DNA of 54,754 nt from a virus (lineage: Duplodnaviria; Caudoviricetes). Position numbers and translations under genes: made by a program. A model generated the notes under the pieces. It saw only the letters and a program-made list of their open reading frames with translations, was not told the origin of the DNA and made no database searches. This document shows positions 24,768 through 35,679 of this stretch, piece by piece. The number at the start of each line of letters is the position of its first letter. Positions within the stretch are counted from its first letter, which is position 1. The stretch covers positions 1-54,754 of IMG/VR virus record IMGVR_UViG_3300020202_000088. One strand, 5' to 3'.

Positions 24768-25103
24768 ATGCGCTACCTGGCCATCGTCCTCTGTACGGTA
24801 ACCGTGGGCTGCTCGACCGCTGCGAAGCGGGAGGCCGCATTCGACGAGAGTCTCAAATCCTGGTTCGGGCGCAGCATCACCGAGTACGTGGCCGAGAACG
24901 GTAACCCGACCCGCTCCCTGGAGCTTCCGGGGGGCATTCGGTCCTACGAGTGGCAGCACTACGGGGACGTTGAGACGACCGTGGGCCCGGCGTACGGCGG
25001 CTTCCGCCACGTCTCCTCAGAACAAAAATCCTGCCGCATCACCTTGCTCACTGAGGTGACGGGCAGGATTCGGGAAGCCAGCTATGAGGGGCACTGCTAC
25101 TAA
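24768..25103 (+). CDS. Lipoprotein, copy 1 (possible exclusion/surface factor)
   Basis: Signal peptide with lipobox TVGC; differs from 35680..36015 at only 2 residues. Confidence 0.75.
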   Translation: MRYLAIVLCTVTVGCSTAAKREAAFDESLKSWFGRSITEYVAENGNPTRSLELPGGIRSYEWQHYGDVETTVGPAYGGFRHVSSEQKSCRITLLTEVTGRIREASYEGHCY

Positions 25104-25140
25104 TTGGCGGGTCCCGTCATTATGCAGAGTGGGGTTACTG

Positions 25141-26364
25141 ATGTTCCGCAATTCAGAGGATACGACGATTTGGCAGGGGCTAGGACAAGCATTGGGTTGG
25201 ACTACGCCGGAGCATTTTCGTTCCGTCGAGCGTGAACTAGGTAAAGGCAAGCTACACGCGCAGTTCGAAAACGAACTGATTGGAGCTATTCATAAGAACA
25301 AGAAAAGGATTTTCGTTCTTGCCGAATGGGGGGCGGGCAAAACCTTTCAATCGCTACTCTTTAGGCAAGAGTATGCTGACCGATACGCTTTTGAGTATTT
25401 TTCATTCTTTGGAATCCAAAATCTCTCGAGTGCTTATGTCCATGCGATGGGATTCATAGCGCGACTAGTGACCTTATGTGCCGGAGTTTTATGTCTCGCA
25501 CTTGTGCTGTCTCGGTTCGCCGACGACCTGAGGACGGTCAAAGCAAGTCCTCTCGTATCGCTGACCGCGACCTTGTTTGTGGGATTTTTTGTTTACGGGA
25601 ACCGCTGGAGGCTCGCTTACGTATTGGTGAGCATTTCAAAGCTATGGATCGCAGTTCGAGGGAGCAGGCGAGTAGTCATACTAGATGATCTAGATCGTTC
25701 CTCGCTCAGTGATTCGGATCGGTGGGCTTTCCTATCAGACTTATGGACTGTCAATACACAGTACATCATCTTGCTGGGCTACCTGAATCCCGATGACCGG
25801 ATCCAGATTGCAGACATCGCAAAGAAACTGGATGGTGCAATCATTTTTCTTGGGTCAAGTCGGCGCGAGAAGTTCGCCGTCGTTCAACATCTCTGGCCTG
25901 ATTCTCCTTTCCAATGGTCAGAGACCGGCACTGTCTACCATTGGCTAGACCACTTCACGCCTCGCGATTTCATAGCGGCAGCAGACTATGTGAATCGAGT
26001 AACGGGGGGCCGGCTAGGCGAAGCAAGTAAGAAGCTAGTCGGCGCAGCATTCATTCATCATGAGCTACAGATGAAGATTGGGATTCCTCGCGATCAGTTG
26101 CAGTATGCGTCGCTGAAAACTGAAAACACTCATCTTGCCCGCGACACGGATGCACGAATGCTCGGCCCGAAGCACGAAATGGCAAGTCAGACGCTAGCTA
26201 GTTTCGCAGGGACTCTGCTGCCTGAGGTAGCTAAGACAGCCTGCGATCTTAGAATTCATATGAGTCAGCAGATCGAGCCATTTCGGAGCTGGAATTCCAG
26301 CTTCCTGGTTCCTAGTCTGATTTCCTTCGAACAAGCCTTGAAGCAGAAGTCCTCACCAAGCTGA
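25141..26364 (+). CDS. KAP-family P-loop NTPase-like membrane protein
   Basis: Walker A AEWGAGKT, two TM helices inserted before Walker B VVILDDLDR; visibly lower GC than its flanks. Confidence 0.7.
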   Translation: MFRNSEDTTIWQGLGQALGWTTPEHFRSVERELGKGKLHAQFENELIGAIHKNKKRIFVLAEWGAGKTFQSLLFRQEYADRYAFEYFSFFGIQNLSSAYVHAMGFIARLVTLCAGVLCLALVLSRFADDLRTVKASPLVSLTATLFVGFFVYGNRWRLAYVLVSISKLWIAVRGSRRVVILDDLDRSSLSDSDRWAFLSDLWTVNTQYIILLGYLNPDDRIQIADIAKKLDGAIIFLGSSRREKFAVVQHLWPDSPFQWSETGTVYHWLDHFTPRDFIAAADYVNRVTGGRLGEASKKLVGAAFIHHELQMKIGIPRDQLQYASLKTENTHLARDTDARMLGPKHEMASQTLASFAGTLLPEVAKTACDLRIHMSQQIEPFRSWNSSFLVPSLISFEQALKQKSSPS

Positions 26365-26520
26365 GCCAGCCCGGGTTTGTGTCACATCTGTGTAACACCA
26401 TAGACGCGAAACGCCCGGTTATGCGCCGCATTCGACAGTAGTCTCGAACGCAGGTAACTGCTCGCGTTTATTTGATTTGTTGAGTGATGTCCGACGACTA
26501 CGTTTTTGCGGTAAGGCGAA

Positions 26521-26565
26521 TTGACACGGTAGGGGTCGCTGGTTCAATCCCAGTCGAGCCAACCA
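26521..26565 (+). other. Satellite attP: 3' half of tRNA-Val(GAC)
   Basis: TTGACAC anticodon loop, GGTAG stem strand, T arm GCTGG-TTCAATC-CCAGT, acceptor strand plus ACCA; the 5' half is absent. Confidence 0.9.
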
Positions 26566-26576
26566 TTTAGAACTCG

Positions 26577-26620
26577 AAGCCCTTCAAGACCTTACAACGG
26601 AACCTTGAGGGGCTTTTTCT
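26577..26620 (+). terminator. Intrinsic terminator after the tRNA fragment
   Basis: AAGCCCTTCAAG...CTTGAGGGGCTT followed by a T tract. Confidence 0.65.
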
Positions 26621-34028: not shown

Positions 34029-34174
34029 ATAGCCACATTCTAGCACTCCCCTTGTAATCAGACCACTTCAAGTATTTCGCTGTACCTGCGCTTGTATTGC
34101 AAATGTCCGTCTGCTGTTCGCTCTTGACTCTGTGCAGCAAAAGGTTGATGCTGTGCACATGGAGGTATTGCAGT

Positions 34175-34753
34175 ATGCAGTACATATACTCGAGAGTGAG
34201 TACCGACAGGCAGGAAACGCTGAACCAGACCACGAACCTGCGTGCGCTGTACCCAAACGCTGCCGTGGTGGAGGAGGTGGCCTCAGGAGCGAAGCAGCGG
34301 CCAATGCTGCGCGAGCTGGTTGGTCGCCTTCAGAAAGGGGATGAGCTGATCGTGGCCGCCCTAGACCGACTGGGAAGGCGCACGTCGGAGGTACTGGCCC
34401 TTATCGAGGAGATGGACCGACGGGGGGTCATCCTGAAGTCCGTGCGTGAAGGCGTGGACTACGCGACGCTCACGGGCCGCTTGGTGACCCAGATCCTATG
34501 TAGCATTGCCGAAATGGAGCGTGGCCTGATTGCCGCACGTACAAAGGCAGCCCTGCAAGCGAGGAAGCAGCAGGGGATGAAGCTCGGCGCGAAGCCAAAG
34601 TTCGATGCTGTAACGGTCGCGAAGGTGCGCGAGCTGAAGGCACAAGGCCTCACTTGTCGTCAGATAGCGGCACAGGTAGGAGTCTCCGCGAGCCGTGTCT
34701 CTCAACTGACCAAGAATGCAGCGCCGGCGATTGAGCTAGCGCAAGCAAGCTAA
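34175..34753 (+). CDS. Small serine recombinase (resolvase/invertase family)
   Basis: YSRVST catalytic Ser, SGAKQRPML, LDRLGR, C-terminal HTH; GGAGG RBS. Confidence 0.92.
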   Translation: MQYIYSRVSTDRQETLNQTTNLRALYPNAAVVEEVASGAKQRPMLRELVGRLQKGDELIVAALDRLGRRTSEVLALIEEMDRRGVILKSVREGVDYATLTGRLVTQILCSIAEMERGLIAARTKAALQARKQQGMKLGAKPKFDAVTVAKVRELKAQGLTCRQIAAQVGVSASRVSQLTKNAAPAIELAQAS

Positions 34754-34768
34754 CCAAAGGAGCGACCG

Positions 34769-35050
34769 ATGAAAGCGAATGGAATGTACTCAGTTGAAGT
34801 GGAACAGGCAATCAAGGCGGTAATCGCAAAGGGGGGATACCGCGTGTATCGCTGTTTGCGCCTGAAGGATGGTGTGAAGGCACGCGGCATGCGGGCGCGC
34901 ACTTATCGACAGGCAGTTGCCCGGCTTCAACAGCTGGAAGAAAGCGGACAGGGGACCTGCGTGGCGCCGGACCTTGCTGATGTCGCCTTCGAGATTCGCA
35001 AGGTGCCTTCGGGCTGGGCAGTGTATGCCCGCGACCCGAAGACAGTCTAA
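34769..35050 (+). CDS. Hypothetical satellite protein
   Basis: AAGGAG RBS, 93 aa. Confidence 0.55.
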   Translation: MKANGMYSVEVEQAIKAVIAKGGYRVYRCLRLKDGVKARGMRARTYRQAVARLQQLEESGQGTCVAPDLADVAFEIRKVPSGWAVYARDPKTV

Positions 35051-35168
35051 GCTTAGTCCTCACGCCTATAGCGGTACGTAAGCTCACAGGCGACCTGCGG
35101 TACGTTTGCAGAATTCAGGGTCAGCAGTCATCGGCCCTACCAGGTCTCCGAACCCAAAGGAGACACAC

Positions 35169-35624
35169 ATGATCCAAGTTATTCGTAAGGACGAAGGCAA
35201 GTTCGAGTTCATCGCGCAGAAATCTGAACGGCACGAGAGGCTGCAGAGGACCTGCTCACAGGCAATGCTGATTGCGCTGCTTACAAGGGCCGGCTTTCAC
35301 GAGAGCGAGACACTTTTCTTGCTCAGCGACCTTGGGAGCGAGGATGGCCGGCTGAGTTACGCGCAGCTTGGCGAGGGCGAGTATCTAATTGTGGACTCTG
35401 CCAACGGCAAGGCAGTGTTCGGCGACTGCGATGTGTTCATGGGGTACTTGATGCGCGACCTCGGCCTCGACAGCCTGAGTGCATTATGGATCCTGCACGA
35501 TGCTGAAGGACACGCTCCGACGGGCGACGAGCTAGTCGAAATGGGGATTACTAGCGAGCAGTGGAATGAACTTGGCCTCGAGACTGTAGAAGTCGACCGC
35601 GGAAGTGACAGGAAGGCGAGCTAG
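35169..35624 (+). CDS. Hypothetical satellite protein with an internal two-fold repeat
   Basis: AAGGAG RBS and start MIQVIRK. Confidence 0.6.
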   Translation: MIQVIRKDEGKFEFIAQKSERHERLQRTCSQAMLIALLTRAGFHESETLFLLSDLGSEDGRLSYAQLGEGEYLIVDSANGKAVFGDCDVFMGYLMRDLGLDSLSALWILHDAEGHAPTGDELVEMGITSEQWNELGLETVEVDRGSDRKAS

Positions 35625-35679
35625 CCGCAGATGGTGATTTTTCATTTCTCGACTCGCGAACCGCAGATACTCTCGACAT

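Follow-up and report, generated by a model that had tools for sequence, protein, structure and literature searches.

A small integrative element between two lipoprotein gene copies in a tailed-phage assembly: a candidate phage satellite with a probable Bdellovibrionota host

The DNA analyzed in this report is an entire IMG/VR record, IMGVR_UViG_3300020202_000088, of 54,754 bp (rated 100% complete, linear class), which we call the window. It holds the genome of a tailed phage and, between two copies of a lipoprotein gene, a unit of 10,912 bp. Our main finding is that this unit is not ordinary phage DNA but a distinct mobile element, small and integrative. We read it as a satellite-like integrative element of a Bdellovibrionota host that is tied to the lineage of the surrounding phage, and we give this reading a probability of about 0.5. 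An earlier note, made from the letters of the window, had described the unit as a phage satellite captured together with its probable helper, a podovirus, in a gene layout unlike known satellite classes; as set out below, its description of the unit stands in part, the claims of joint capture and of a podovirus are not borne out, and that of a new layout is too strong.

The unit between the lipoprotein genes

The borders of the unit are formed by a direct repeat (24756-25055 and 35668-35967, 93% identical, spacing 10,912), in agreement with the earlier description. The flanking repeat covers about 350 bp in all and holds, in each copy, a full open reading frame (ORF) for a lipoprotein of 111 aa (Table 1). 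Between the two gene copies, 16 nt differ in gene positions 1-114, none in positions 115-335 and one in the stop codon, so that a block of 221 nt is identical (24882-25102 = 35794-36014). This identity points to a recent exchange, which would be either the joining itself or the last gene conversion. A third lipoprotein-like stretch, at 26425-26455, resembles 24834-24864 at 24 of 31 nt (77%), with an exact run of 12 nt, and lies 65 nt from the attachment core described below; we set it aside as probably due to chance, about two 12-mer matches being expected by our estimate.

Integrase, excisionase, ribbon-helix-helix (RHH) protein and resolvase, all named in the earlier note, were confirmed by Pfam matches, and the excisionase by PHROG families as well; the real start of this last protein, which carries a helix-turn-helix (HTH) domain of the HTH_17 family, is probably further downstream than listed (27796-28212). 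With the integrase, the HTH_17 protein of excisionase type and a 47-nt tRNA-Val fragment, the unit has integration and excision functions of its own. A full virion gene set is absent from it: one paralogue of a phage late-module protein is present, along with several ORFs that have no assignment. Scans with Pfam, PHROGs and PADLOC gave no match to a capsid, portal, terminase or tail family in the ORFs of the unit that they covered (for PHROGs, 10 of them and not the whole set), so that the reported lack of a recognizable capsid or terminase gene holds for these ORFs. PADLOC, run on 10 unit proteins, gave no defence match either. Eight genes of the unit form a tight leftward string with gaps of at most 140 nt, in the order 87-aa ORF, Rep-like protein, 169-aa ORF, 117-aa ORF, shared late-module protein, 222-aa ORF, excisionase and integrase.

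Two gene assignments of the earlier note stand in part. The protein at 25084-26364 had been called a KAP NTPase, and its Pfam match to KAP_NTPase (PF07693; E 0.02, 14.6 bits) falls below the 20-bit cut-off. Support comes from the ESM Atlas, where its nearest clusters (0.92-0.94, with 207 shared features at 0.94) have PF07693 in 97-99% of their members and where structure comparison gives TM values of 0.56-0.58. By eye, the protein contains a Walker A motif (EWGAGKT), two hydrophobic segments and the string VVILDDLD; the G+C content at third codon positions of its gene is low (0.53). Together with the lipoprotein gene, we count this gene as cargo of the unit.

The Rep-like protein, for its part, has no Pfam or PHROG match, hence no family-level match in sequence, and no replication origin was recognized. 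A word-indexed protein search returned only the protein itself, and a full HMMER search gave 121 remote homologues. In an alignment of 41 sequences (the query and 40 homologues), residues D89, D91, K126 and D161 are invariant, all in the N-terminal domain, and winged-HTH families are found in the middle of the proteins of this family, at residues 240-285 or so in the unit's own. The AlphaFold2 model (pLDDT 87.4) has Foldseek matches to VirE_N/primase entries of BFVD (E 2e-6 to 3e-4) and weak matches to Prim-Pol structures of the PDB (E 0.05-0.13). We read the protein as a putative replication protein of primase-polymerase type, by likeness of fold and not by family membership; the remote homologues, the primase-type fold and the winged HTH are what now support the name Rep-like.

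Ties between the unit and the phage

Comparison of the window with itself revealed just three ties between unit and phage: a late-module protein, a 38-nt motif and the lipoprotein gene. The three shared elements of the earlier note are thus present, and it is the label 'ejection-type' that it gave to the protein which is less secure, as what supports it is gene position, a low-confidence structural model of pLDDT 62 and a single Atlas lead.

The two copies of this protein (29080-30468 in the unit, 50763-52061 in the phage) are identical at 345 of 403 aa (86%), with unrelated C-terminal tails, and their genes are 77-78% identical at the nucleotide level over 1.2 kb. For this pair dS is 1.68, dN 0.11 and dN/dS 0.065, values which argue for an old split after which both copies remained functional, under purifying selection. 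As to function, the AlphaFold2 model is all-helical, featuring one helix some 120 residues long and a tail rich in glycine, and the Atlas lead is P22_gp7, present in 17% of one cluster at a score of 0.92. Searches over 20 members of the family with a PDB-sequence profile and with Pfam gave nothing useful for function, apart from one homologue of the 20 that carries Peptidase_S74, a tail-fibre chaperone domain. It is possible that the protein is an ejection protein; because of this one family member, a tail-fibre-type role is kept as an option.

The copies of the 38-nt motif (16605-16642 and 33468-33505) are identical at 34 of 38 positions (89%) and include a perfect block of 21 nt, which occurs twice in the window and in none of 100 shuffles. 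Each copy is found in the main non-coding region, ahead of a gene string that runs leftward. In the five related phages described below the motif is absent, even when as many as 4 mismatches were allowed over 21 nt, or 9 over 38 nt. We take it to be a candidate common control site or packaging site, which would couple expression or packaging of the unit to the phage. The earlier note had read it as a packaging signal borrowed from the helper; given its place ahead of the leftward operon in unit and phage alike, a promoter or operator common to the two seems at least as likely. A consensus scan for sigma-70 promoters called neither copy; read by eye on the reverse strand, the motif resembles an extended -10 element.

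The three ties differ widely in divergence, with nucleotide identities of 100% (lipoprotein block), 89% (motif) and 78% (late-module protein), and therefore suggest a long association of unit and phage. Since the 221-nt block is perfect and the dS of the shared protein is saturated, the joining, or the last gene conversion, would be recent and the association old.

Host, relatives and surrounding phage

The candidate attachment site lies at 26521-26567. Alignment to full genes shows that these are the last 47 nt of a tRNA-Val(GAC), from the anticodon loop to CCA followed by TT; tRNA positions 32-76 plus 2 nt are the sole part that aligns, and the 5' half is absent. ARAGORN accordingly found no tRNA gene in the window, and Rfam found none at gathering scores, nor any at E<=10 in 26300-26700. 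The 'intact tRNA-Val attP' of the earlier note is thus right as to the tRNA with its GAC anticodon and as to its attP-like character, and wrong as to completeness. Fragments of this kind, from the 3' end of a tRNA gene, are the typical attP part of integrases that target tRNAs. A 30-nt pattern from the 3' end had 33 exact matches, in 33 contigs, when 185,579 species genomes were searched. Thirty of these contigs are named within Bdellovibrionota, and the remaining three bear the labels Alphaproteobacteria, Pseudomonadota and Deltaproteobacteria. tRNA-Val(GAC) was called at all 22 loci scanned; of the 33 loci, 21 contain all 47 nt and another has a version of 45 nt, and some of the loci have about 60% G+C, as does the window. 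Because the fragment matches genes of this phylum, it points to a host of the unit among the Bdellovibrionota.

The attP core is intact, lies within the unit, 17 nt from the end of the integrase gene, and stands at neither unit junction; therefore, the join seen in the window would not be the work of the integrase. Between the core and the end of the integrase gene, the region 26575-26625 has a G+C-rich hairpin followed by a run of T, which looks terminator-like; an Rfam match to ctRNA in this region (13.5 bits) is not significant. In both of the metagenome runs discussed below, one or more extra contigs share only 26521-26566 (46 nt) with the window and have other sequence on both sides. The letters ahead of the core mismatch the 5' half of the tRNA, which sets aside a plain empty attB; such contigs might stem from a different island in this tRNA gene, as its attR-type junction.

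Relatives of the phage were found through the shared-protein family, a search with which led to 10 IMG/VR loci; five whole records (41.8-44.9 kb, 96-100% complete) were compared with the window. Amino acid identities are 62-70% for the capsid, 58-60% for the portal, 48-61% for the terminase and 42-46% for the polymerase. In each of the five the shared protein occurs as a single copy, in the late region, and in none of them is there a lipoprotein gene or any of the unit-specific ORFs. Without the unit, the phage of the window measures 43,716 bp, within the range of its relatives; with it, it is about 22-31% longer than the five. The earlier note's view of the unit as an addition, and not a fixed part, of such phages agrees with its absence from all five.

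Relatives of the unit are more remote. Among 401 Bdellovibrionota genomes, three gave matches to the Rep family with strong E-values. One of the loci is a 7.5-kb contig (L088, G035:C75:1-7505), in which an integrase, an excisionase, two ORFs and a Rep gene follow one another in leftward order, along with a Cro-type HTH gene and a resolvase; the gene order is that of the unit, with amino acid identities of 24-33%, and no terminal overlap was found in the contig. Another is an island next to a tRNA-Arg gene (L090, G376:C6:420000-439999) with a C5 cytosine methylase, an integrase and a family B DNA polymerase, that is, a pipolin-like gene set; its RHH protein is 54% identical to that of the unit, and its match to the Rep family is partial. 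These likenesses place the unit in a loose assemblage of small integrative elements found in Bdellovibrionota.

As for the surrounding phage, bases 3-128 of the window recur exactly at 54629-54754 (126 nt; base 2 differs), which makes the assembly a circle of about 54.6 kb; because the overlap sits within a gene, we read it as an assembly overlap of this circle, and not as a true terminal repeat. A megablast search of 50,697 phage records with 24000-37000 and 36000-54754 returned nothing, and the shared protein had none among named phages. The best named matches of the capsid are capsids of Arthrobacter and Microbacterium phages, at 22-24% identity, which does not bear out the name podovirus. 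The integrase-like gene next to terL (14072-15184) has no Pfam or PDB profile match and is recognized by phrog_1 alone; homologues 40-43% identical are present in two of the related phages (G407 and G408), placed elsewhere, by the glycosyltransferase neighbourhood. An A+T-rich repeat of 26 nt (12555-12580 and 16500-16525, 81% identical, TTAATAG...TTCCCGTTTTA) has one copy just beyond the 3' end of terL and the other some 80 nt away from the 38-nt motif of the phage.

Table 1. Features of the unit and of the phage in the window
Feature	Position	Strand	Remarks
Lipoprotein gene, left copy	24768-25103	+	111 aa; phrog_3716 E 8e-6; lipobox-like VGC by eye
KAP-like P-loop NTPase	25084-26364	+	ESM Atlas; Pfam under cut-off
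attP-type core	26521-26567	+	3' 47 nt of tRNA-Val(GAC)
Tyrosine integrase	26584-27792	-	PF00589 E 2.6e-19
Excisionase/AlpA-type HTH protein	27796-28212	-	HTH_17 E 1.5e-9; PHROG excisionase families
222-aa ORF (as listed)	28353-29021	-	no Pfam, PHROGs or PADLOC match
Unit copy of phage late-module protein, 462 aa	29080-30468	-	paralogue of 50763-52061 (-)
117-aa ORF	30499-30852	-	no family match
169-aa ORF	30969-31478	-	no family match
Rep-like protein	31478-32776	-	fold likeness, winged HTH
87-aa ORF, first of leftward gene string	32761-33024	-	no family match
38-nt motif, unit copy	33468-33505	+	in 0.8-kb non-coding region upstream of leftward string
RHH protein, 71 aa	33831-34046	-	PF01402 E 9.3e-6, above cut-off
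Small serine recombinase, resolvase/invertase type, C-terminal HTH	34097-34753	+	PF00239 E 9.8e-33
Two ORFs without assigned function, 93 aa and 172 aa	34769-35624	+	
Lipoprotein gene, right copy	35680-36015	+	111 aa
Major head protein	6781-7989		tailed phage part
Glycosyltransferase-like gene	8814-9668		between portal and scaffold; kept at 48-52% in 5/5 relatives
Portal	9665-11857		tailed phage part
Large terminase (terL)	12578-14044		tailed phage part
Integrase-like gene	14072-15184	-	directly upstream of terL; phrog_1 E 1.3e-6
Methyltransferase	15359-16087		late strand
38-nt motif, phage copy	16605-16642	+	about 120 nt upstream of leftward string methyltransferase - integrase-like gene - terL
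Second glycosyltransferase-like gene	22416-23399		phrog_2170; late strand
Family A DNA polymerase	40943-42739		
Primase	45471-46211		
Phage copy of shared late-module protein, 432 aa	50763-52061	-	in late gene string after capsid and tail genes

Competing explanations and known satellites

Under the reading as a satellite of the surrounding phage's lineage, the unit would reside at the tRNA-Val gene of the host until phage activity, acting through the shared motif, turned on the leftward string that runs from the 87-aa ORF to the integrase; it would then excise, replicate and move in helper particles. Since its 10.9 kb are one quarter of the phage length (43.7 kb), heads of full size might be filled by multimers; this is plausible given that length and the lack of a size-redirecting gene, and the resolvase would reduce the multimers to monomers. 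A single homologous crossover within the 221 identical nt of the lipoprotein gene, joining a circular unit to the phage, would produce the cointegrate. In its most explicit form, the proposal is that of a satellite of a phage of predatory bacteria (Bdellovibrionota), a satellite which has no capsid-remodelling or terminase gene, brings its own long-kept version of one internal or late virion protein and rides either as a tetramer or as a reversible cointegrate at the lipoprotein gene; this form is tentative, and we regard it as doubtful.

The earlier claim that the unit is a satellite of the surrounding phage is supported by the discrete nature of the element, its integration module, its likely replication gene and the lack of recognizable structural genes. 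Several observations weigh against it. Packaging, induction and dependence on a helper are proposals from sequence at the level of contigs, and the ratio of phage to unit length, 4.006, is a near-integer value remarked post hoc. In none of the searches did a close relative of the unit appear: Rep had none in JGI metagenome contigs and none in plasmids; the lipoprotein found only itself in an index of 5.8 billion proteins, and nothing in IMG/VR or JGI metagenome contigs; and single-protein scans of IMG/VR with the glycosyltransferase neighbour, Rep, the lipoprotein and protein P0038 gave no relative. The shared protein has no Pfam, PHROG or PDB match and, but for one weak low-complexity match, is absent from the 401 Bdellovibrionota genomes. 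None of the 33 tRNA-Val loci has a relative of any window protein, so that no integrated copy was seen. The 7.5-kb contig with the gene order of the unit carries no virion gene. Finally, the unit integrase could be the sole good one of the phage, whose own is weakly called.

Whether phage and unit are joined in one molecule is a separate matter, on which none of the explanations of the unit itself depends. Two soil metagenome runs of two studies (X1 and X2) hold the stretch, and one of them may be its source. In X1 (contigs at k=31), depths are 20.8 and 19.8 for the phage arms and 24.1, 19.7 and 17.7 for pieces of the unit, and the 221-nt core forms a separate contig of depth 38.1; in X2, the phage has 5.2-6.7 and the unit 4.7-5.8. 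The length-weighted ratio of unit to phage comes to about 0.94 for X1 and 0.91 for X2. The comparison of coverage that the earlier note had proposed thus gives about 1:1 twice, a result that does not tell a cointegrate apart from two circles. In both runs, the Logan contigs end at the 221-nt block, and the graph is a figure-8, with two loops on one node, which fits one circle of 54.6 kb, two circles or a mixture. An ENA assembly has a contig of 10,973 nt with the integrase, KAP gene and shared protein of the unit; this length equals 10,691 unit-specific nt plus 2 x 141, and fits a break of the graph at the repeat if k = 141, which we take to be the default of a common assembler. The ENA contig is likewise uninformative on the choice between cointegrate and two circles.

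It is conceivable, at only slightly less than an even chance, that the 43.7-kb phage and the 10.9-kb unit are separate circles, and that the assembler walked both loops of the figure-8. The halt of the Logan contigs at the core in both runs, the summed depth of this core in X1 and the length of the ENA contig are all as expected from such a state; moreover, a complete right copy of the lipoprotein gene is on record from the JGI contig only, and a 54.6-kb molecule exceeds the genome size of the family. On the other hand, ratios so near to 1 in runs of two studies are unexpected for two free replicons, and the source contig crosses both copies of the repeat in composite order, which lends some support to the join if paired reads guided the path. 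We put the reality of a single 54.6-kb molecule at about even odds. That phage and unit were captured together is not borne out, since the join spans the very block at which the Logan and ENA contigs break.

A different view of the unit itself is that it is an ordinary integrative island or plasmid with no tie to packaging, its shared features being left over from exchange in a common host. The occurrence of the Rep family in the pipolin-like island by tRNA-Arg, and in a small integrase-excisionase-Rep-resolvase element devoid of virion genes, is in keeping with this view, as is the lack of a recognized terS, capsid or size-redirecting gene in the unit. Such an island has no evident use, however, for a virion-module protein held at a dN/dS of 0.065, nor for a motif unique to this phage that keeps the same position relative to the operon; that three separate exchanges, differing in age, took place with a single phage lineage implies an enduring tie, and the depth of about 1:1 with the phage in two runs also speaks against independence. 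We hold this view to be unlikely. It is very improbable that the unit is a built-in accessory or lysogeny module of a single 54.6-kb temperate phage, with lipoprotein copies born of an internal duplication: the one contig closed to a circle by its 126-nt end overlap, the equal depth in two runs and the weakly recognizable character of the phage's other integrase-like gene would suit such a module, but the five relatives of 41.8-44.9 kb have no unit-specific ORF and one shared-protein copy each, the composite is about 22-31% longer than these five, recombination between perfect direct repeats of 221 nt would remove the intervening DNA, a dS of 1.68 implies long separate histories, and the family has its own candidate integrase in the homologues of 14072-15184.

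The satellite-like reading can be set beside known satellites. The layout had been claimed to be unlike known classes, which is an overstatement: helper-embedded satellites and minimal satellites packaged as concatemers are already known, the former as HE-PICI and the latter as PICMI, and the trio of integrase, AlpA-type HTH protein and primase is the minimal core of PICMI and of 'type C PICI'. HE-PICI (Tommasini, Mageeney & Williams 2023, PMC10111431) is a satellite of about 11 kb within a helper of about 50 kb; it has captured helper late genes, has 258 bp in common with the helper at the cos position (90%), and according to its authors the composite would surpass the packaging limit. The unit resembles it in these sizes, in its integrase and AlpA-type gene, in having a (putative) primase of its own, in the capture of helper late genes and in a short non-coding stretch shared with the helper. 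HE-PICI, however, was inserted by its integrase into a late gene of the helper, which it interrupts, with attL and attR at the junctions, whereas the junctions of the unit are two whole lipoprotein copies, its attP is internal and intact, and no gene is interrupted. The inferred host phylum also differs, and no relation in sequence was detected.

PICMI (Barcia-Cruz et al. 2023 preprint, 10.1101/2023.07.18.549517) fills full-size heads with concatemers, 8 x 6.1 kb against a phage of 47.9 kb, to which 4 x 10.9 kb against 43.7 kb would be a parallel in the unit. Both have a core of integrase, AlpA-type regulator and primase (putative in the unit), along with cargo, and neither has a recognized capsid-remodelling or terS gene. 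PICMI, an element of Vibrionaceae, in contrast inserts at the 3' end of fis, measures about 6 kb and has virulent helpers, and no helper virion gene or resolvase is reported for it; the attP of the unit is a tRNA-Val(GAC) fragment of Bdellovibrionota type, and the core trio is analogous only.

Size (about 10 kb), integrase, AlpA-type gene and primase or replicase (in the unit, by fold) are also common to the unit and to PICI, P4-like elements, cfPICI and PLE, whose terS, ppi, capsid morphogenesis, psu/delta/sid and capsid/portal/connector/terL genes are not recognizable in it. In the SatelliteFinder paper (de Sousa et al. 2023, PMC10085698), the trio of integrase, AlpA and primase scores as 'type C PICI', and sets of three components are treated as possibly other mobile elements. 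Compared with the PICI model of five core components, the unit has the integrase, the AlpA-type gene as HTH_17 and the primase-replicase by fold, and no hijack component, as judged with Pfam and PHROGs in place of SatelliteFinder's profiles and from a component list based in part on PMC10085698. The ORFs scanned with Pfam and PHROGs include neither the psu-delta-sid operon, epsilon and alpha primase of P4-like elements nor the capsid, portal, head-tail connectors and terL that cfPICI carry themselves. PLE, elements of Vibrio cholerae, differ in inferred host and gene set. VEIMEs (Eppley et al. 2022, PMC9618062) are marine, packaged as concatemers and defined from long reads of particles; the unit, likewise environmental, equipped with integration and likely replication genes and of a kind known mainly from metagenomic data, is known here from contigs alone. 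In the literature on Bdellovibrio phages, prophages and satellites, no such element appeared by title or abstract among the matches listed, which is not proof of absence.

New in this case are the way in which unit and phage are joined, the host phylum that we infer and the retention of a virion-module paralogue. For metagenomics, the case is a caution that a shared stretch of 221 nt can merge a phage and a co-resident element into a 'complete' genome that is about 25% too long. If the unit is indeed a satellite, phage satellites would extend to Bdellovibrionota, and there would be a second route into the genome of a helper, namely homologous recombination at a shared cargo gene in place of site-specific insertion, by which the helper-embedded state would be reached without an integrase. 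Furthermore, a parasite would keep under selection its own version of a virion protein of its helper, which may mean interference at the level of the particle or a change of host range.

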